A stretch of DNA of 10,688 nt from a virus (lineage: Duplodnaviria; Heunggongvirae; Uroviricota; Caudoviricetes): the IMG/VR virus record IMGVR_UViG_2695420822_000015; one strand, given 5' to 3'. A program made the translations under genes and the position numbers. The notes beneath the pieces were generated by a model. That model searched no databases. It was not told where the DNA came from and saw nothing but the letters and a program-made list of their open reading frames with translations. Numbering within the stretch: the stretch's first letter is position 1; the number at the start of each line of letters is the position of its first letter. Positions 221 through 10,538 of the stretch are shown here, piece by piece.

Positions 221-566
221 GAACTTGCAGAACGTCATGATCATAACTTCCATCCAAACCGCGACGGCGAATTGCTTCTCGTATTACCGGAAGCAGTTCG
301 CTGGAAATCTCGGTGCATATTTCACCTGATAATACGCTTGGCTCAAGTGAGAATATTGGTGAACTTACGGTCTTGGTCTCGACAGTTTCAGAGTCAGTGC
401 CAACATTATAAAGCTCAACGAAAGCGGTCTTGATTTTCCGGGCCAGATCTTTTGCTGGCTCGCTTGCAATATCTTTCCCGATTTCTCGCAGCACAGAATG
501 CAATGTATGAGCTGCTGTTTTCTGTACATCAGACGGTAAATCTTTAAATTCCATCGTCAGCCTCAT
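189..566 (-). CDS. Hypothetical phage early-left protein (125 aa)
   Basis: ATG start; its start overlaps the stop of the upstream gene 566..772 in an ATGA arrangement on the minus strand (translational coupling). Lies leftward of the OL-like operators as expected for a PL-type operon. No family recognised. Confidence 0.5.
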   Translation of the reverse strand: MRLTMEFKDLPSDVQKTAAHTLHSVLREIGKDIASEPAKDLARKIKTAFVELYNVGTDSETVETKTVSSPIFSLEPSVLSGEICTEISSELLPVIREAIRRRGLDGSYDHDVLQVLRTMVTSLGI

Positions 567-772
567 CAGTCAGTGTTTCTGGCTAACCAGCAACGCGCGC
601 CAGATTCGGTTTTAAACGTTTTGCTTTTGGTATACGTCATGGCGGTAAACGTTCCATCCTGGTTAGGGAACACGCCGCACACCAGAGATTCGTTGTTGCC
701 AAGATCGATAGTATCCATGCTGACCTCATTTCCCCTTAACGCCGGGGTGGCGGAACAAAAAACCTGCTGCAT
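566..772 (-). CDS. Hypothetical phage early-left protein (68 aa)
   Basis: ATG at 772-770; weak SD; coupled by ATGA to the downstream ORF. Not arginine-rich, so not an N-type antiterminator. No family recognised. Confidence 0.4.
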   Translation of the reverse strand: MQQVFCSATPALRGNEVSMDTIDLGNNESLVCGVFPNQDGTFTAMTYTKSKTFKTESGARCWLARNTD

Positions 773-898
773 AGTTAAAGATTGAACCCTGCCGTCATGT
801 TCTTACGCCTCGGGCTGGCTACTTAACCCCTGACCACTGTCTGGTAACTCGAAGTATTGCCCTGCATTCTGTGGGGCGGGGTGGGTTGACGCCTGAAA

Positions 899-943
899 CA
901 ATAGCATCATTATTTTTTTTGATGTAAATAGCATCGCTATTGT
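899..943. promoter_or_regulatory. OL-like operator pair (inverted repeats AATAGC-N3-GCTATT)
   Basis: Perfect 15-bp palindrome AATAGCatcGCTATT at 927-941 and a degenerate copy AATAGCatcATTATT at 900-914, centres 27 bp apart. Same motif recurs in the cI/cro intergenic region. TTGACG at 886-891 and minus-strand TTTACA (923-928) are possible -35 elements; -10 not confidently assigned. Confidence 0.5.
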
Positions 944-956
944 TTTTTGTTGGGGC

Positions 957-981
957 AAGAAAAAACCACCCTAAGGTGGTT
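957..981 (-). terminator. Rho-independent terminator ending the repressor-antitoxin-toxin operon
   Basis: Stem 964-970 (AACCACC) pairs with 975-981 (GGTGGTT), loop CTAA. On the minus-strand transcript the hairpin is followed by UUUUCUU. Sits 17 bp downstream of the parE-like stop (998). Confidence 0.6.
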
Positions 982-997
982 CTGTCGGCGGGAATAA

Positions 998-1288
998 TTA
1001 ACTGTTTTTGCCTGGATACTGTCTTCGAGAATGCACAATATTTACTACTTCTATGCTTGATGCTGTTACTCGGTAAAGGATGATGTAGTTAGGATGAGTT
1101 ACAATTTCACGAAGACCAAGAACTCGCTCGCTTGGAGGATACAGGTAAGGATGCTCTGTGAGCGGCAAAACGGATGTTTCAATTCGAATTTTCATTCTGC
1201 GTGCTGCCGCGGGATTTTCTTTAGCTATGTAGGCTACGATCTGGCGCAAATCATCACGAGCAGATGGTAGCCATAAAACGGGTAACAT
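998..1288 (-). CDS. parE: Type II toxin, RelE/ParE superfamily (ParE-like), 96 aa
   Basis: Sequence has the ParE-like pattern (N-terminal LWLPSARDDLRQIVAYIAKENPAAARR; core ILYRV...IEVVNIVHSRRQY). ATG overlaps the antitoxin stop as TAATG at 1286-1290. Third gene of a repressor-antitoxin-toxin operon, as in the paaR-paaA-parE modules described in E. coli O157:H7 prophages. Confidence 0.85.
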   Translation of the reverse strand: MLPVLWLPSARDDLRQIVAYIAKENPAAARRMKIRIETSVLPLTEHPYLYPPSERVLGLREIVTHPNYIILYRVTASSIEVVNIVHSRRQYPGKNS

Positions 1289-1482
1289 TATTCACCTCTG
1301 TGAGTTGCAGCAGCAATTTGGGCAATAATTTGTTCCATTTCCGCCATTACCTCATCATGCGGAATCGCCGGGCGGGGATCCGCGAGGCTTGCTGCTACTT
1401 TGGCCCGCAGCCATTCGTTGTAACTATTTTCTTGCTCAACTGTCTCAAATTCTGAAACCATTGGGGAAAGGACTGTACTCAT
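1288..1482 (-). CDS. Small acidic antitoxin partner of ParE (64 aa, PaaA-like)
   Basis: 64-aa acidic protein immediately upstream of, and overlapping, the toxin gene. SD GAGGAG about 9 nt upstream of ATG (1482-1480). Position and size fit a ParD/PaaA-type antitoxin; identity inferred from context, not from a recognised motif. Confidence 0.7.
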   Translation of the reverse strand: MSTVLSPMVSEFETVEQENSYNEWLRAKVAASLADPRPAIPHDEVMAEMEQIIAQIAAATHRGE

Positions 1483-1501
1483 TTTACATATCTCCTCTGA
1501 T

Positions 1502-2032
1502 TTAGGCGCGACGGCCTTTTTGTGCAGCTAACCACCGCGCAACCGTACGATCCATTGATTCTTTTTTATCTTTCATCTCCTGAAGCATGTGTTCTTGATC
1601 TTCTTTCGGAAAAGCTCTGAACGTATGGATTAAATCTCGTTCCATCGGCTCTACGGCAAACGGTAGTTCATCCTCTGTTTGTTCTGTGTCTGCTGGTAAT
1701 GCGACTATGTTATCTTGCTGTGGTTCTCGACAATACATCCTTGCAATTTGCAGCAAATCTACCATGTCTGGCCTGATTGACTCAGGGGGAACTTTCAGTA
1801 AGCCAGCAAACTTTAGAACAGCCTCAAGGTTTAGTGGGGTTTGACCATTTAGGTAGTGACTTACCGCCCCTTGTGTTGAAAACCCCATAATTTCCGCCGC
1901 ACGTTCCTGAGTCAATCCCAACTGAGATTTCTTTGCCATCCAGATTTCTTTCAGTCTTCTGGCGGCGTTGAGGTCGGTGTCTGACAATGATTTTCTTTTC
2001 ATACATCCAATTCTAATAAGATTGCTAATCAC
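1502..2032 (-). CDS. cI-like HTH (XRE-family) repressor lacking an S24 peptidase domain (PaaR-like)
   Basis: N-terminal HTH segment LGLTQERAAEIMGFSTQGAVSHYLNGQ resembles lambda cI/XRE DNA-binding domains. No Ala-Gly/Ser...Lys autocleavage motifs seen. Track start is GTG at 2032; ATG at 2002-2000 with almost no leader or SD is the more likely start (leaderless, as for lambda cI from PRM). 19-bp gap to the antitoxin gene. Confidence 0.8.
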   Translation of the reverse strand: MISNLIRIGCMKRKSLSDTDLNAARRLKEIWMAKKSQLGLTQERAAEIMGFSTQGAVSHYLNGQTPLNLEAVLKFAGLLKVPPESIRPDMVDLLQIARMYCREPQQDNIVALPADTEQTEDELPFAVEPMERDLIHTFRAFPKEDQEHMLQEMKDKKESMDRTVARWLAAQKGRRA

Positions 2033-2086
2033 TTTGAAATAGCATCACTATTTACTTTTAAAAATAACAGTGCTATTAATTATGCA
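2033..2086. promoter_or_regulatory. OR-like divergent operator/promoter region between cI-like and cro-like genes
   Basis: Two near-palindromes of the OL motif: AATAGCatcACTATT (2038-2052) and AATAACagtGCTATT (2063-2077), centres 25 bp apart. Candidate rightward promoter TTTACT (2051-2056), 17-bp spacer, TATTAA (2074-2079). Confidence 0.6.
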
Positions 2087-2113: not shown

Positions 2114-2377
2114 ATGAATCTTGGAGAATATTTGCATCATTTTCATATAACCCAGAGTTCATTTGCTGAGATTGTTGGCGCATCCCAAGGGATGGTCAGC
2201 CACGTTATAACGGGGCGTGCAAAACTTACAGGAGAAAAAATATTACGTTGGTGTGAAGCAACGGGATGGGTGGTGACCCCACATGAGATTGACAGTAAAA
2301 CCTACCCCAACCCAACTGACGGCTTGCCTGCTGAGTTTCAGGCTAACACACAACCATCGGCGGGGGTTGATTCATGA
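2114..2377 (+). CDS. Cro/YdaS-like HTH transcriptional regulator (87 aa)
   Basis: Divergent from the repressor gene. Short HTH protein (FAEIVGASQGMVSHVITGRAKLTGEKILRW). Track start is TTG 2087; ATG 2114 with upstream AGGGCGG is preferred. Stop overlaps the next gene start in ATGA (2374-2377). Confidence 0.8.
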   Translation: MNLGEYLHHFHITQSSFAEIVGASQGMVSHVITGRAKLTGEKILRWCEATGWVVTPHEIDSKTYPNPTDGLPAEFQANTQPSAGVDS

Positions 2378-2799
2378 AAATCAAGCATGAACACATCCGC
2401 ATGGCGATGAAAGCCTGGGCGCATCCGGACGGTGAAAAAGTTCCGGCAGCTGAAATAACCAGGGTTTATTTCGAACTGGGAATGACGTTTCCGGTTCTGC
2501 ATAACGACAGCAAGCACAACACGCTTTATCTCAACACCCAAAAGATTTTCCGTTGGCTGGATAAAGACACCCCTGACGCTGTTGAAAAAATTCAGGCGTT
2601 GTTACCTGCGATCGAAAGGGCAATGCCACCTCCGCTGGTGGCTCGAATGCGCAGCCACAGTTCAGCTTATTTTCGGGAACTGGTGGAGACGCATGAACGA
2701 CTGGTGAGAGACGCTGATGATTTTGTCGCAGTGGCAATCGCCGGTTTCAATCAGATGAACCGTGGTGGCCCGGCAGGAAATGCTGTGGCAGTACATTGA
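2374..2799 (+). CDS. YdaT-like (cII-position) protein, 141 aa
   Basis: Translationally coupled to the cro-like gene; GGGGG SD 7 nt upstream. Size and position match Rac-type ydaS-ydaT pairs. Family assignment from recalled similarity, unverified. Confidence 0.6.
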   Translation: MKIKHEHIRMAMKAWAHPDGEKVPAAEITRVYFELGMTFPVLHNDSKHNTLYLNTQKIFRWLDKDTPDAVEKIQALLPAIERAMPPPLVARMRSHSSAYFRELVETHERLVRDADDFVAVAIAGFNQMNRGGPAGNAVAVH

Positions 2800-3941: not shown

Positions 3942-4719
3942 ATGAAAAACATTGCGGCAGCCGGGGTTCTTGAACGTATTCACAGACTTGCACCACAGGG
4001 GGCGGTTCCACCGTACCGGACGGTGGAGGAGTGGCGGGGGNNNNNNNNNNNNNNNNNNNNNNNNNNNNGAATGGCAACTTGCTGAAGGACGAAAACGCAG
4101 CGAGGAGATTAACCGCCAGAATCGCCAGTTGCGGGTGGAAAAAATCCTGAATCGTTCGGGCATCCAGCCTCTGCACAGCAAATGCTCGTTTGCGAATTAT
4201 CAGGTGCAGAACGACGGGCAAAAATACGCGCTGAGCCAGGCCAAATCCATAGCTGACGAACTGATGACCGGGTGCACGAATTTTGTGTTCAGCGGTAAAA
4301 CCGGCACCGGGAAAAATCACCTTGCAGCGGCGATGGGTAACCGGCTGATGGCGAAGGGGCGCAGCGTGATTATCGTCACCGAGTCTGATGTCATGAGCGT
4401 GTTGCATGACAGCTACGACAACGGCAAATCCGGTGAAAAATTTTTACAGGAGCTTTGTGGTGTTGACCTGCTGGTCCTGGATGAAATTGGCATGCAGCGG
4501 GATACGAAAAACGAGCAGGTGGTACTGAACCAGATTGTTGATCGCCGGACGGCATCGTTACGCGGTGTGGGGATGCTGACAAATATTAACCATGCAGCGA
4601 TGAATACACTTCTCGGCGAGCGGGTGATGGATCGCATGGTCATGAACGGCGGGCGCTGGGTGAATTTTAACTGGGAGAGCTGGCGTCCGAATGTTAGCCA
4701 TTCGAGGGTTGTTAAGTAG
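3942..4719 (+). CDS. DnaC-like helicase loader (phage replication protein, AAA+/IstB-like), interrupted by assembly gap
   Basis: Walker A FSGKTGTGKNHLAAA, Walker B DLLVLDEIG; C-terminal LGERVMDRM closely resembles E. coli DnaC. ATG 3942 (MKNIAAAGVLERIHRL...) lies 6 nt after the O-like stop. The track's TTG 3952 start is in another frame and is an artefact of the 28-N gap. Confidence 0.8.
4041..4068. other. Assembly gap (28 N) inside the dnaC-like gene
   Basis: Run of N; gap length is not a multiple of 3, so the reading frame across it is undefined. Confidence 0.95.
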
Positions 4720-4750
4720 TTTCAGGAGGATTTATGGCGAAACCTTTTAN

Positions 4751-5154
4751 ATCACTTAGCGGCAGCTATCGGGAATCGCCTGCTGAAAGACGGTCAGACA
4801 GTGATTGTGGTTACCGTGGCTGATGTTATGAGCGCCCTGCACGCCAGCTATGACGACGGGCAGTCAGGCGAAAAATTTTTGCGGGAGCTGTGCGAAGTGG
4901 ATCTGCTGGTTCTTGATGAAATTGGCATTCAGCGCGAGACGAAAAACGAGCAGGTGGTGCTGCACCAGATTGTTGATCGCCGGACAGCGTCGATGCGCAG
5001 CGTGGGGATGCTGACAAACCTGAACTATGAGGTGATGAAAACATTGCTCGGCGAGCGGGTGATGGATCGCATGGTCATGAACGGCGGGCGCTGGGTGAAT
5101 TTTAACTGGGAGAGCTGGCGTCCGAATGTTAGCCATTCGAGGGTTGTTAAGTAG
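4751..5154 (+). pseudogene. Second, 5'-truncated copy of the dnaC-like 3' region (fragment; likely chimeric join)
   Basis: Starts in-frame at ..NHLAAAIGNRLLKDGQ.. right after a single N (4750) that interrupts the start of the downstream gene (ATGGCGAAACCTTTTA, 4735-4749). Segment 4610-4749 is identical to 5045-5184. Confidence 0.6.
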
Positions 5155-5168
5155 TTTCAGGAGGATTT

Positions 5169-5353
5169 ATGGCGAAACCTTTTACTCCCGAACAGCGGGA
5201 AGAACTGAAGACGCGAATTGTGGAACTCGTGCATCAGGACGGTCGGGTCACGATTCGGCAGTTGTCAGATGAAACAGGTATCAGTCGTGCGTCTGTCGGT
5301 CGCTTATGCATAGAACTGGTCGCAAGTGGTGATGTATATAATTCTGGCTACGG
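5169..5353 (+). CDS. Hypothetical winged-helix-like protein, 5' portion only (truncated at N 5354)
   Basis: RBS AGGAGGA then ATG 5169 (MAKPFTPEQREELKTRIVELV...GISRASVGRLCIELVASGDVYNSGY). Reading frame is broken at the N junction, where sequence switches into a dnaC fragment. Confidence 0.5.
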
Positions 5354-5354
5354 N

Positions 5355-5599
5355 TCCTGGATGAAATAGGCATTCAGCGGGAGACGAAAAACGAGCAGGT
5401 GGTATTGCACCAGATAATTGATCGCCGGACAGCATCACTGTGCAGTGTCGGGATGTTAACAAACCTGAATCATGCCGCAATGAGCACGCTTCTTGGTGAG
5501 AGGATTATGGACCGCATGACCATGAACGGTTGTCGGTGGGTGACGTTTAACTGGGATAGCTGGCGTTCAAATGTCAGCTTTCCGGGAGTTGTGAAGTAA
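5355..5599 (+). pseudogene. Third, 5'-truncated dnaC-like 3' fragment (divergent allele)
   Basis: Encodes ..LDEIGIQRETKNEQVVLHQIIDRRTASLCSVGMLTNLNHAAMSTLLGERIMDRMTMNGCRWVTFNWDSWRSNVSFPGVVK*. Begins immediately after N 5354. C-terminus differs from copies 1 and 2. Confidence 0.6.
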
Positions 5600-5620
5600 T
5601 TTTTGTTGGAGGATGTTTTA

Positions 5621-6346
5621 ATGGAAACTGTATTTGACGCACTGAAAGCACTGAAAAGAGCCTCTTCACATGTGGTGGCGTCCCGCCTTGGAATCAGCCG
5701 TGAAGATGCGGTCAACGAACTGTGGAAACTGAAGCGCCGTGGTGAAGCGGATAACAAGGGTTCGATGTGGTGGCTGATTCAGGCTGGTGAAAGTGAACCA
5801 GTGTCACCGGTACCGAAAGTGACAGCGCAAATGCTGACTGAGGCGATTGAACAACATGGCCCACAAACGGCGGATGAGCTGGCACTGATGTTCGGGATTA
5901 CCTCCCGCCGGGCGAATTCATCGCTGGCCATGGCAATCAGCAAAGGGCGTCTGATTCGCGTGAATCAGGGCGGTAAATTTCGGTACTGCATACCGGGCGC
6001 TGATTTACCGGCAGAGCCGAAAGCCGCATCCATAGCGGAAACGGATGGTAAAGTCTTTCCTCAGCCAGCAGGTGTTGCGTTACCGGTACAGGAAGCTGCA
6101 ACACAGGAAGAAATTAAAACAGAAACTGTGGCGGACATTGTGCAGTCGTTGCCATCGTTCACCGAAACGCAAGCGGATGACCTGGTTTTACCATCGCTGC
6201 ATATGGCAAACCGCGAACTGCGTCGGGCGAAAAGTCATGTCCAGAAGTGGGAGCGTGTCTGCGCCGCGTTGCGGGAGCTGAACAAGCACCGGGATATTGT
6301 TCGACAGATTGTCGATTCCTCCGGTCGTATTGTGTCGGAAAAGTGA
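5621..6346 (+). CDS. Hypothetical phage protein with two putative winged-helix-like segments (241 aa)
   Basis: GGAGGA SD 7 nt upstream of ATG 5621 (track start TTG 5603 is in the same frame). Follows the third dnaC fragment. Segments [22 protein letters not shown] and [31 protein letters not shown] resemble the wHTH of the neighbouring gene family. Confidence 0.6.
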
Positions 6347-6361
6347 TTGCCGGGGGCGCTT

Positions 6362-6501
6362 ATGGCAAAAGTATTTACACAGGAAGAGCGGGAAAAAATT
6401 AAGGGGCAGGTTGTTGAACTCGTACGCCAGAGTGGGCGCGAGACGTTACGACAACTGGAAGCTAAAACCGGGGCGACAAGATATTTAATAAGCGTTCTCG
6501 C
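6362..6501 (+). CDS. Hypothetical winged-helix-like protein, 5' portion (runs into 63-N gap)
   Basis: ATG 6362, MAKVFTQEEREKIKGQVVELVRQSGRETLRQLEAKTGATRYLISVL; paralogue of 5169..5353. Truncated by the gap. Confidence 0.5.
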
Positions 6502-6564
6502 NNNNNNNNNNNNNNNNNNNNNNNNNNNNNNNNNNNNNNNNNNNNNNNNNNNNNNNNNNNNNNN
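6502..6564. other. Assembly gap (63 N)
   Basis: Run of N. Confidence 0.95.
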
Positions 6565-7626: not shown

Positions 7627-9459
7627 ATGGCCCGCATGTTTGATACATTAGGATTTTACATTATGAATGTGCAACATTTTGATTTTTTTACAGATAATGA
7701 GTTTTCTAATCTGGAAAGATATCAAACTTGTAAAGCCATGGCCAAAGGTTATGCGGGCAATTACAAAACCGGGCAGTCAAGGTTGATGCATGCCCGCTCA
7801 TACTGCTTCAGCATCGTAGCTGCATATTGGGATACCCTTGCAAAAAAGCAAAAAAGCAGCATTAAAATGAGGGCAGTACCGCACACTGTTTACATAGAAG
7901 ACATTCCATGTGATGCACGCGAGCTCGCTGAACGAACAGGTGAGCTTATTGCTCAATTTCCGGCGGAGGACGCTGGATATCTGATTGGGTCAATTTATAC
8001 GGTAATGCTGCCATCCGCTTACCGTTCGGAATTGGGGGCTTACTATACCCCCCCACCTTTGGTAGCGCGTCTCTTGGACCTGGCTGAAAAGTCTGGTGTT
8101 GATTTTTCTCATGCATCGGTTATTGATCCTGCGTGTGGTGGCGGTGCATTTTTGGCACCAGTAGCCATTCGAATGTTAAAAAAAGACAAGGGGCCTTCCC
8201 CTGAATGGATGTTGAGGAGAATCAGTCGTCGTTTAAAGGGGATAGAAATCGATCCATTTGCGGCTTGGATGAGTTTGGTATTGCTCGAATCTGTACTAAT
8301 GCCACTATGTGTAAAGGTAAAACGTAGATTGCCTGAAGATACAATTATTGTTGCTGATGCGCTTCAGCAAGATAAATTTTCTGGTTATGATCTTGTGGTA
8401 GGGAATCCGCCTTACGGACGTGTCACTCTCGATATTAAAACGAGAGAAAAATATTCTCGTTCGTTATTTGGTCATGCAAATCTATATGGATTGTTCACCG
8501 ACTTAGCTGTTCGCATGGTTAAAGAGAAAACAGGAGTTATTGCATTTCTTACGCCAACTTCTTTTCTTGGTGGGCAGTATTTCACCGCGCTGCGAACCCT
8601 TTTGACCGAAAAAACTACTCCGTATGCCCTTGATTTCGTCACTGACAGGGATGGGGTCTTTGACGATGTTCTCCAGGAAACAATGTTGACAGCATTCAAG
8701 GCGGGAGAACATAAAGTTCGGGCCCAGGTATCCTCACTTGTCCCTAAGGGGTTGAACAAAGCAAAAATTGAGAAAATAGGTAATGTTGATATAGAAAAAG
8801 GTGGAGCAACGTGGCTTTTGCCACGCGTTAAAGATGATGCCTGTTTTCTTAATGTATTAAAACAGATGTCTACGCGTTTAGCTGATCTGGGATACTCAGT
8901 CTCTACAGGTCAGTTAGTCTGGAATCGATTTAAGTCGCAGTTGCGTACGACGAAAGGAAAAAATAGCTACCCATTAGTCTGGGCGGAATCAATAACTTCA
9001 GCTGGTTTTCGTTTTAGTGCAGACAGAAAAAATCATGTTCCCTATATCGATATAACCCCACAACAGGGTTTCCTTGTGACAAAATCTGAATGTGTGCTTG
9101 TTCAGCGGACAACATCGAAGGAACAGGACAGAAGGATTTTAGCGGCAATTTTACCTCAGGGATTTATAGATGAAACTGGTGGCGTAGTAGTTGAAAACCA
9201 TATTAATATTGTATATTCAAACGGATTGTTCTCTGCGGTTCGCCCTGATGTTATTGATATGCTACTTAATTCGCATGTTGTCGATCGGGCGTTCAGGTGT
9301 ATAAGCGGAAGTGTTGCTGTTTCGGCCTATGAATTGAATTCAATCCCGTTGCCTTCTCTGGAGCAGGTGATGGAGATTCAATCGTTAATTGATGCTGGCG
9401 TCCACAGACGGATTATTGAGAGAACTATCGCTGGTTTCTATGGAGTGATGATTGCATGA
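7627..9459 (+). CDS. N6-adenine DNA methyltransferase, gamma class (Eco57I/TaqI-like motif order)
   Basis: Motif X GAYYTPPPLVARLLDL, motif I IDPACGGGAFL (SAM binding), motif IV VVGNPPYG, in the order X-I-IV. About 130-aa N-terminal extension and about 280-aa C-terminal region (presumed target recognition). AT-rich codon usage. Start could be ATG 7627, 7636 or 7663. Confidence 0.85.
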   Translation: MARMFDTLGFYIMNVQHFDFFTDNEFSNLERYQTCKAMAKGYAGNYKTGQSRLMHARSYCFSIVAAYWDTLAKKQKSSIKMRAVPHTVYIEDIPCDARELAERTGELIAQFPAEDAGYLIGSIYTVMLPSAYRSELGAYYTPPPLVARLLDLAEKSGVDFSHASVIDPACGGGAFLAPVAIRMLKKDKGPSPEWMLRRISRRLKGIEIDPFAAWMSLVLLESVLMPLCVKVKRRLPEDTIIVADALQQDKFSGYDLVVGNPPYGRVTLDIKTREKYSRSLFGHANLYGLFTDLAVRMVKEKTGVIAFLTPTSFLGGQYFTALRTLLTEKTTPYALDFVTDRDGVFDDVLQETMLTAFKAGEHKVRAQVSSLVPKGLNKAKIEKIGNVDIEKGGATWLLPRVKDDACFLNVLKQMSTRLADLGYSVSTGQLVWNRFKSQLRTTKGKNSYPLVWAESITSAGFRFSADRKNHVPYIDITPQQGFLVTKSECVLVQRTTSKEQDRRILAAILPQGFIDETGGVVVENHINIVYSNGLFSAVRPDVIDMLLNSHVVDRAFRCISGSVAVSAYELNSIPLPSLEQVMEIQSLIDAGVHRRIIERTIAGFYGVMIA

Positions 9460-10538
9460 ATCTGCCTGTTGTTCCCCCATTGAATGTTATCCGGGAAAGA
9501 TTACAATTAATTTTCCCTGAAGGGACTGAGAATCGTGGATATTTAATTCGGGAAATAGCTGCAAAAACAATTTTTGTCATGTTTTATGCTGGTGCGGTTG
9601 AGGGGCTGGGGCGATGGATAAGGCCCAGCCAGGTTGTAAGTATGGGAGATTCGCAGGCTGCTCTTACTGATGATGCGTCCAGAGAAAGCTGGGTAAAGAT
9701 GACTTTCTCTAAACAAAAGATAAGGCCTGCTGATGCATGGTATGCGGAAAATACGCGTGAGCCAATACGTGATGAAACTATAAAAAATGGCCTAATACCT
9801 TGCAATGCAATTGTTGAGCGTAAAGGTATACCCACCACATCCTCTCGTCCTCGTTACAGTTTGAATCGCTCTTTTGCAGCACTCTTTGATGCCGGGCTTG
9901 AAGGAGATTCGCTGCTGAGTGCAATAAGTTCCTGGCAAGAAAATCATTTGAACAAAGCCGCTCTTGCTAGGTTGCGTTTATTGAAATCAGGGGCAGTGAT
10001 TGCTGCTGATGCCGTAGTCGTCACTTTCCCAAATGGAGAGAAGAGAACTTTAGCTCCGGGCCCGTCAAGTACAATAGCTAAGGCCGTCATCGAAGTTTTT
10101 GCTCCTAATTTTCTTAAGAATCCAACTGTGCTCTGGTTGTCTGAATCCGGGAATAAAGTTGTTGCTCAGGATGATGTATTGGCAAAAGCATTGGGGCTGA
10201 ATATTGATGCCTCAAAAGCACTTCCAGATATTATTTTGATTGATTTGGGAGAGGACCGAACGGGTTCGGACATGCTTGTAGTTTTCACTGAAGTAGTTGC
10301 GACAGATGGGCCTATAAACAGGGAACGAAAAGTTACTCTCACTCATTTGGCTATTGACGCTGGGTTCAGCGAGAAAAATCTTGCATTCCTTACGGCATTT
10401 ATGGACAGAAGTGCTCTGCCTTTTAAAAAGGCAATACCAGAATTGGCGTGGGGATCTTATGCATGGTTTGCTTCTGAACCGGAGCACTTAATTGATCTTC
10501 GGGATGGTTATCCGGTAAAGATCAGCCAGAGAAAATGA
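9456..10538 (+). CDS. MTase-coupled partner protein (360 aa); putative restriction endonuclease or other effector, family unassigned
   Basis: ATG overlaps the MTase stop (ATGA 9456-9459); GGAG about 10 nt upstream. Same AT-rich composition as the MTase. No Walker motif, HNH or clear PD-(D/E)xK triad identified by eye; candidate acidic cluster IDLGED...FTEVV. Confidence 0.55.
   Translation: MNLPVVPPLNVIRERLQLIFPEGTENRGYLIREIAAKTIFVMFYAGAVEGLGRWIRPSQVVSMGDSQAALTDDASRESWVKMTFSKQKIRPADAWYAENTREPIRDETIKNGLIPCNAIVERKGIPTTSSRPRYSLNRSFAALFDAGLEGDSLLSAISSWQENHLNKAALARLRLLKSGAVIAADAVVVTFPNGEKRTLAPGPSSTIAKAVIEVFAPNFLKNPTVLWLSESGNKVVAQDDVLAKALGLNIDASKALPDIILIDLGEDRTGSDMLVVFTEVVATDGPINRERKVTLTHLAIDAGFSEKNLAFLTAFMDRSALPFKKAIPELAWGSYAWFASEPEHLIDLRDGYPVKISQRK

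Follow-up and report, generated by a model that had tools for sequence, protein, structure and literature searches.

A candidate lambda-type immunity switch with its own operator motif around a ParE-type toxin-antitoxin operon

Palindromic sites on both sides of the repressor operon

The subject of this analysis is a 10,688-nucleotide stretch of a Caudoviricetes record in IMG/VR (IMGVR_UViG_2695420822_000015), the whole of which is referred to as the window. Toward its left end, a leftward operon encodes a repressor, a PaaA-type antitoxin, and a ParE-type toxin; a cro-like gene and ydaT are read in the opposite direction, and ydfA lies beyond the operon (Table 1). Copies of the palindromic motif AATAGC-N3-GCTATT occur on either side of this operon. 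We consider it very likely that these sites function as operators and propose, with a probability of roughly 85%, that they belong to the lambda-type immunity switch of a degraded lambdoid prophage that probably comes from Shigella sonnei. Both statements rest on sequence comparison.

The window was scanned for the motif with up to two mismatches. Four matches were found, at 900, 927, 2038, and 2063, as compared to 0.32 expected from dinucleotide shuffles, none of 200 of which reached four, and no other match at this threshold is present anywhere in the 10.7-kb window. An initial annotation had listed these four sites as operators bracketing the repressor operon, and our rescan returned all of its coordinates, with two, zero, one, and one mismatches, respectively. 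The pair spacing of 25-27 bp and the separation of about 1.1 kb that it described were measured as 27 bp between centres in the left pair, 25 bp in the right pair, and 1111 bp between the inner sites. Its description of 927-941 as a perfect palindrome applies to the two 6-nt arms but not to the centre, ATC, which is asymmetric. In addition, a third right-hand site at 2015-2029 had been overlooked, which is added when the scan is relaxed to three mismatches. This site is not significant alone, but its position is kept in most related loci.

Table 1. Genes, candidate operators, and predicted promoters of the switch region (window positions)
Feature	Position	Strand	Description
ydfA (DUF1391)	566..718	-	PF07151, E 3e-28; first gene downstream of PL; annotated ydfA in E. 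coli relatives
PL, putative leftward early promoter	898..928	-	-35 TTTACA 928..923; extended -10 TGcTATTGT 906..898; read by eye
OL1 AATAGCATCATTATT	900-914	.	2 mismatches; overlaps PL -10; promoter-proximal left operator
OL2 AATAGCATCGCTATT	927-941	.	0 mismatches, perfect arms; abuts and overlaps PL -35
Intrinsic terminator of the repressor-paaA-parE operon	957..983	-	hairpin 983..962, U-tract to 957
parE-type toxin gene, 96 aa	998..1288	-	PF05016, E 2e-17; 67% identical to ParE2 of CP-933P
paaA-type antitoxin gene, 64 aa	1288..1482	-	PF21217 PaaA2, E 3e-23; 75% identical to PaaA2
Repressor gene, 166 aa	1502..2002	-	lambda CI-like five-helix N-terminal domain, disordered linker, PaaR2-like helical C-terminal tail
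PRM-like promoter	2010..2038	-	-35 TTCAAA 2038..2033; -10 TAGAAT 2015..2010; consensus scan 9/12, 17-nt spacer
OR3 AATAAGATTGCTAAT	2015-2029	.	3 mismatches, weak; centre -20 from ATG; overlaps PRM -10 and spacer
OR2 AATAGCATCACTATT	2038-2052	.	1 mismatch; centre -43 from repressor ATG; overlaps PR -35, abuts PRM -35
PR, putative rightward promoter	2051..2079	+	-35 TTTACT 2051-2056; 17-nt spacer; extended -10 TGcTATTAA 2071-2079; read by eye
OR1 AATAACAGTGCTATT	2063-2077	.	1 mismatch; centre -68 from repressor ATG; overlaps PR -10
cro-like gene, 87 aa, helix-turn-helix	2114..2377	+	Pfam HTH_3, E 4e-4
YdaT (CII-analogue) operator TTGATTCATGAAAATCAA	2367..2384	.	spans cro stop and ydaT start
ydaT (CII functional analogue)	2374..2799	+	PF06254; PDB 3c4r 4e-79, 8bt1 3e-70; 77% identical to CP-933P YdaT

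The right-hand sites form tandem palindromes between the divergent repressor (start at 2002) and cro-like (start at 2114) genes and overlap the predicted promoters of both. The predicted PRM start falls at the A of the repressor ATG or 1 nt ahead of it, so the repressor mRNA would be leaderless, as documented for paaR2 and lambda cI (PMC8630535). A -10-like hexamer 6-7 nt from the repressor ATG is kept in all related loci. Also kept across loci is the placement of the putative PR, with its -35 (TTGAC/TTTAC) at the end of OR2 and its -10 beginning with the last 4 nt of OR1. In lambda, where the A of the cI ATG is also the leaderless PRM start, the GenBank annotation places the centres of OR3, OR2, and OR1 at -19, -42, and -66 relative to that base. 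The corresponding centres here are -20, -43, and -68; neighbouring sites are 23 and 25 bp apart, as compared to 23 and 24 bp in lambda. At window position 2047, OR2 reads ACTATT, as compared to GCTATT in the E. coli relatives, in which the site is a perfect palindrome.

On the left, a second operator cluster lies past the repressor operon and over the putative leftward early promoter, and a pair is present in all loci detailed. The fusion of the PL -35 (TTGAC/TTTAC) to OL2 and the inclusion of the -10 (TATTGT) in OL1 are common to nine loci. The resemblance to the lambda OL/OR layout noted in the initial annotation is therefore upheld, with the right cluster within 1-2 bp of the lambda positions and the left pair over a leftward promoter.

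The left pair of the window does depart from its relatives in spacing. The PL spacer is 19 nt (17-18 nt in relatives) and the 27-bp distance between the OL sites is atypical, since it is 24-26 bp in relatives and in most cases 25 bp. Between OL1 and OL2 lies a T8 homopolymer (913-920), which is T6 in E. coli relatives, and the two extra base pairs account for both the longer spacer and the wider site spacing. A 19-nt spacer suggests that PL may be crippled in this window. In six other genomes encoding the identical repressor, presumably S. sonnei, the tract is 7, 8, or 9 nt long; the longer tract shifts the PL spacer from 17 to 18-20 nt and the operator spacing from 25 to 26-28 bp. This length variation may reflect slippage or assembly error.

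The initial annotation had also placed a terminator at 957-981, between the operon and the left pair. It is plausible as a real terminator, with a hairpin of -15.1 kcal/mol (z = -2.7) followed by UUUUUCUU, and an equivalent hairpin and T-run are found in L001, L002, L012, and L013. The strand, which had not been stated, is minus, on which it would end the repressor-toxin-antitoxin transcript, a placement that corresponds to that of the tIMM terminator of lambda. A rightward promoter-like call of the consensus scan at 886-913, overlapping OL1, was rejected since its TTGACG is not kept in L002 and it would read antisense into the terminator.

The motif and its candidate readers in related loci

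Eight non-redundant loci were examined site by site. They come from metagenomes, E. coli, Citrobacter braakii, Salmonella diarizonae, Yersinia frederiksenii, and Rouxiella aceris, and the identity of their repressor heads reaches down to ~60%. A scan of genome contigs gave six loci and a scan of viral contigs far more. In all eight loci, one site has its centre between -65 and -68 and another between -40 and -43 relative to the repressor ATG, most often at -68 and -43, and a downstream pair with a spacing of 24-27 bp is located 572-2977 bp past OR2. A third site at -17 to -20 was detected with up to three mismatches in six of the eight and was absent at that threshold from L002 and L012; following the consensus ATTAG(C/T)AA..CTATT, we placed an OR3 site in all eight. 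A site at -20/-19 matches with no more than two mismatches in L069-L072 and L081. When the scan for the -68/-43 pair and the downstream pair was extended to 42 distinct IMG/VR contigs, nearly all had both. Among contigs with heads of ~40% identity (n = 4), the motif was found in three and a clear downstream pair in two, with the upstream sites at other offsets.

Pooling of 64 half-sites gave A64, A62, T64, A64, R56 (G32/A24), and C54, with no constraint on the central 3 bp. Conserved half-sites around a free centre are the signature of an operator for a dimeric helix-turn-helix (HTH) protein, which is how we read these putative sites. The motif is also concentrated in these places: the operator zones contain 31 matches in 1096 bp, as compared to 12 matches, and no pairs, in 172 kb of background (the locus flanks and 100 kb of an E. 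coli chromosome carrying the prophage), an enrichment of ~400-fold.

The slot between the repressor gene and OL/PL is occupied by HipA_2 and DUF3037 genes, by a HigB toxin and an HTH gene, or by PaaA/ParE, or is empty (L005 4787-6360; L009 4612-5339; L007, L011-L013), and as a variable cargo slot it is analogous to lambda rexAB. The motif is kept in place whatever the cargo, which indicates that it tracks the repressor head and the cro-like gene and not the toxin-antitoxin pair. It is absent from the Rouxiella locus L014, where the helix is a different one in the repressor (TQATVSQYLR) as well as in cro (SQGYISL).

A more distant locus, L016, comes from a Pseudohongiella metagenome-assembled genome and encodes a CI that has the same helix (QGAVSHYLN) and an S24 domain at its C terminus. 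No match with up to two mismatches was found there. By eye, three GC-rich sites of a related pattern, AATACC-GGC-GGTACT, are visible at ~4900-5000, for example AATACCGGCGGTACT. These sites contain CTGGCGGT, as does lambda OR1, and fit an AATAnC-N3-GnTAnT frame at three to five mismatches.

Residues 2-81 of the repressor are homologous to the N-terminal domain of lambda repressor (phmmer against the PDB, E 3e-9, 1lmb/1rio), and Foldseek comparison of its AlphaFold2 model with that domain gave TM scores of 0.83-0.93 at 33-40% identity. The recognition helix, TQGAVSHYLN, is invariant in homologues of the head. Residues E33 and E37 align with Glu34 and Asp38 of lambda CI, which contact sigma-70 and activate PRM; among 13 aligned heads, E37 is invariant and 12 have E or D at position 33. 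The head is followed in the model by a disordered linker (92-111), a short helix, and a long helix (119-165). This tail is 53% identical to residues 80-124 of PaaR2 (45 aa), and the likeness to PaaR2 is confined to it. An S24 peptidase domain was not found in the repressor by Pfam, which returned only HTH_3/HTH_31. The lack of this domain is shared with PaaR2, DicA, and RacR; the domain is a feature of lambda CI and not of all lambdoid switches.

Three architectures carry the head: the 166-aa form with the PaaR-type tail, a 240-255-aa form with a second HTH and tail, and a 153-156-aa form with a different tail. The tandem-HTH relatives (P0013-P0023; loci L005, L007, L011, and L069-L072) have a PaaR-type tail, and their second HTH and tail also occur as stand-alone proteins of 132 aa. 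The tail is thus joined to at least three different DNA-binding heads, which suggests that it behaves as a portable module. It has no structural precedent in the PDB search with PaaR2, in which the solved structure covers only the N-terminal domain.

When the Cro-like proteins of 10 loci were aligned, the recognition helix of the window protein, SQGMVSH, was found to resemble TQGAVSH of the repressor. The cro-like protein very probably shares the candidate operator sites of the repressor.

The proposed switch and its known relatives

The layout suggests the following mechanism. We infer that dimers of the 166-aa repressor would recognise AATA(G/A)C-N3-G(C/T)TATT and occupy each pair of sites cooperatively. 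Repressor at OR1 and OR2 would cover the -10 and -35 of PR and keep the cro-like gene, ydaT, and the replication genes off (a replication organiser and a DnaC-like loader follow ydaT in the rightward direction). OR2 sits at -43 of the predicted leaderless PRM, the place at which lambda CI acts as an activator of PRM, and could serve the same purpose here. The weak OR3, over the PRM -10, may provide negative autoregulation at a high repressor level. On the other side of the operon, OL2 and OL1 would cover the -35 and -10 of PL, which would read into ydfA and further early-left genes, and the terminator would stop the repressor-paaA-parE transcript shortly before OL. The cro-like protein, with its near-identical recognition helix, probably competes for the same sites.

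The closest described system is the paaR2-paaA2-parE2 / ydaS-ydaT region of CP-933P (Sp12) in E. coli O157:H7, which was reportedly described by Hallez in 2010. The gene order and orientation, the operators between repressor and cro, the second set of operators with PL downstream of parE, the leaderless repressor mRNA (predicted here), the lack of an S24 domain, and the YdaT operator pattern are all shared. As in that system, the ParE toxin is preceded by a PaaA antitoxin that lacks a DNA-binding domain. In CP-933P, both PaaR2 and YdaS leave footprints on the 97-bp intergenic region and repress PR and PL in reporters. At low level PaaR2 also stimulates PRM, and PL, which has three operators and is located just past parE2, is repressed ~100-fold by the two proteins (Jurenas et al. 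2021, PMC8630535). The window also has YdaT adjacent to a perfect match to TTGATT-N6-AATCAA, the published YdaT operator (PMC9986795), at the cro/ydaT junction. This is the sole match in the window and implies a PRE-like leftward promoter, as in CP-933P.

The two systems differ in what would determine specificity. The window repressor holds the place of PaaR as the first gene of the operon and matches PaaR2 in its C-terminal 45 aa, whereas its DNA-binding domain, a different fold-family member, has no detectable similarity: the head is lambda CI-like and the PaaR2 head (PDB 7nkv/8c3k) gave no match. The cro-like protein is without similarity to YdaS. The operators of CP-933P are unrelated repeats of the GTTTAGTAA type, and such PaaR2/YdaS repeats were not found in OR or OL of the window, where AATAGC-N3-GCTATT is present instead. 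With a different head, cro-like protein, and operators, the proposed switch is a heteroimmune member of an already described kind, with a new operator specificity.

Nucleotide similarity to CP-933P follows the same division. It covers 729-888 (93%), 1041-1167, 1349-1567 (76%; these segments contain parE, paaA, and the repressor tail), and 2363-2788 (79%; ydaT), and is absent from 889-1040, which contains OL, the terminator, and the parE 3' end, and from 1568-2362, which contains the head, OR, and cro. Two specificity islands, each with one operator cluster, around a shared toxin-antitoxin core would not be easily accounted for if OL did not need to match the repressor. The locus thus appears to be a natural specificity swap, in which an OL island and a head-OR-cro island were exchanged around the conserved core, and this swap could be used for studying the co-evolution of operators and repressors. 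At 729-888, which is the PL leader, the similarity ends ~10 bp before the PL -10/OL1, a sharp mosaic boundary. No credible Rfam match was obtained for the whole window at gathering thresholds or for 500-2200 at E up to 1, and the conserved leader is not a known RNA family. The ydfA start at 718, downstream of the leader, was set from 50-aa homologues.

The window shares with lambda a repressor head homologous in sequence and fold, right-hand sites that agree within 1-2 bp, OR1 over the PR -10 and OR2 over the PR -35, a leaderless PRM (predicted here), and accessory genes that share the transcript of the repressor, with a terminator between them and OL/PL. The differences are that the window operators are 15 bp (6-3-6) and of another sequence, that there are two OL sites instead of OL1-3, that a short helical tail replaces the S24 autocleavage/oligomerization domain, that the CII analogue is YdaT, and that OL and OR are 1.1 kb apart instead of 2.36 kb. 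No N or nut was identified here. Two cryptic prophages of E. coli K-12, Qin (DicA/DicC, ydfABC-dicF-dicB) and Rac (RacR/YdaS/YdaT), also have a repressor without autocleavage domain divergent from a cro-like gene. In Qin, ydfA-ydfB-ydfC...dicB lie in the repressed leftward operon, and they are likewise annotated in the E. coli relatives of the window locus. Qin and Rac have other repressors and operators than the window, and no toxin-antitoxin pair stands between their repressor and leftward promoter.

Several observations weigh against a lambda-type switch in this window. Neither PR nor PL was called by the consensus promoter scan. OL1 has two mismatches, the OL spacing is 27 bp, PL would have a 19-nt spacer, and, unlike lambda, no OL3 is present. 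Compared with the E. coli relatives, OR2 has a G-to-A change, to which a second, symmetric one is added (AATAGT...ACTATT) in four of the six other genomes with the identical repressor; both changes hit a half-site position at which T is a tolerated minority base. The repressor is without the LexA/S24-type domain that gives lambda CI its RecA-stimulated autocleavage. Finally, the prophage is degraded, with the PL operon cut by IS1. With its OL1 mismatches, OR2 change, and longer homopolymer, the switch in the window looks worn.

The analysis provides a concrete candidate operator, AATA(G/A)C-N3-G(C/T)TATT, and a promoter map for an uncharacterised repressor. It also suggests that the ParE-type pair would here be regulated within a prophage immunity switch and not as an autonomous toxin-antitoxin module. 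The result is confirmatory and extends the CP-933P finding to a heteroimmune lineage. No publication on this operator or repressor variant was found in the literature, including work on paaR1 and on PaaR2 since 2022.

Looping, rival explanations, and prophage context

The initial annotation pointed out that the paired sites resemble a geometry that allows repressor-mediated looping. A loop of ~1.1 kb between OL and OR, closed by tail-mediated oligomers of the repressor, is plausible; the pairing of the sites on each side, the weakness of OR3, and the likeness of the tail to that of PaaR2 speak for it, and by analogy with lambda and PaaR2 we would give it somewhat less than an even chance. From lambda it is known that a weak OR3 is usually filled only with long-range help. 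PaaR2, whose tail is homologous to that of the window repressor, is reported to octamerize like lambda CI (PMC8630535), and lambda CI octamers are supported by just such an arrangement, with sites in pairs at either end (PMC8630535, its refs 38-40). These points speak against the explanation that the operators, although genuine, act independently, with OL repressing PL and OR running PR and PRM and no repressor-mediated loop. This explanation is itself tenable at just short of evens. An OL pair directly over a conserved promoter is enough to account for its conservation, the OL-OR distance is not conserved (572 to 2977 bp), and there is no OL3. The looping proposal depends on a 45-aa tail with 53% identity to PaaR2, and L009, L012, and L013 carry a different tail yet keep the OL pair, which shows that OL can be explained by PL control alone.

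A more far-reaching version, which we regard as unlikely, is that the PaaR-type tail is a portable oligomerization module on interchangeable heads (lambda CI-like, the second HTH type, the PaaR2 head, or two heads in tandem) that closes an OL-OR loop around the variable cargo slot, with the slippage-prone 7-9-nt A/T tract of S. sonnei (6 in E. coli) tuning PL spacing and operator phasing. If so, the expression of toxin or defence cargo would be physically locked to the lysogenic state.

The remaining alternatives concern the identity of the binding protein. The motif could be bound solely by the cro-like protein, with the repressor recognising another sequence. All loci with the motif encode a cro-like protein, whose helix, (S/T)QG(M/Y)VSH, is conserved; however, the repressor helix is invariant in the same loci and closely like that of Cro, no other repeated element common to the OR and OL zones of the eight loci was seen by eye, and operators are shared by the repressor and the Cro-type protein in both lambda and CP-933P. 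We consider this explanation improbable. Classical autoregulation, in which a PaaA-ParE complex binds the palindromes, is suggested by the flanking of the toxin-antitoxin operon by the sites and by the habit of most type II systems of autoregulating via palindromic operators. It is very improbable, since the same motif and positions occur in loci without paaA-parE and since PaaA2 is without a DNA-binding motif and regulation in CP-933P is by PaaR2 (PMC8630535). Chance AT-rich repeats or duplicated promoter sequence can practically be dismissed: the motif is AT-rich and overlaps promoter hexamers, and PR and PL share -35/-10 sequences, but the shuffles and the pair-free background argue otherwise, conservation covers both arms, also at bases that are not part of the hexamers, but not the variable centre, and a changed recognition helix goes with loss of the motif (L014).

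The repressor is 99-100% identical to S. sonnei database entries, and its exact 166-aa sequence is indexed in >6000 blocks of an assembly collection. Repressors of the 166-aa form are found in Shigella, E. coli, and E. albertii, and the same head with other tails in prophages of Citrobacter, Salmonella, Yersinia, and Rouxiella. The DNA identity of E. coli relatives is 96% and ~83%, and most of the region 500-2900 is present in 72 of 5426 complete E. coli genomes. A search of a phage collection with the repressor returned only cI of the lambda group, at ~31% identity, and no isolated phage of this immunity type in that collection.

Positions 1-57 of the window are an IS1 end, and in genomes with the identical repressor the IS1 transposase gene lies just past an open reading frame of 121-125 aa. 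The insertion would truncate the early-left operon and cut off dicB/kil-type genes from PL.

Further to the right, 4041-6564 contains four N runs (28, 1, 1, and 63 nt) and paralogous fragments, which are DnaC/IstB-like near 3952-4719, 4801-5154, and 5399-5599 and also include DUF1627-like pieces. This part looks like a scaffold joining copies from several similar prophages and not one contiguous locus. At 7627-10538, a prophage-like region carries a restriction-modification pair with a 4-bp overlap, which consists of a 610-aa Eco57I/N6_Mtase-type methyltransferase and a 360-aa endonuclease of the BsuBI/PstI family.

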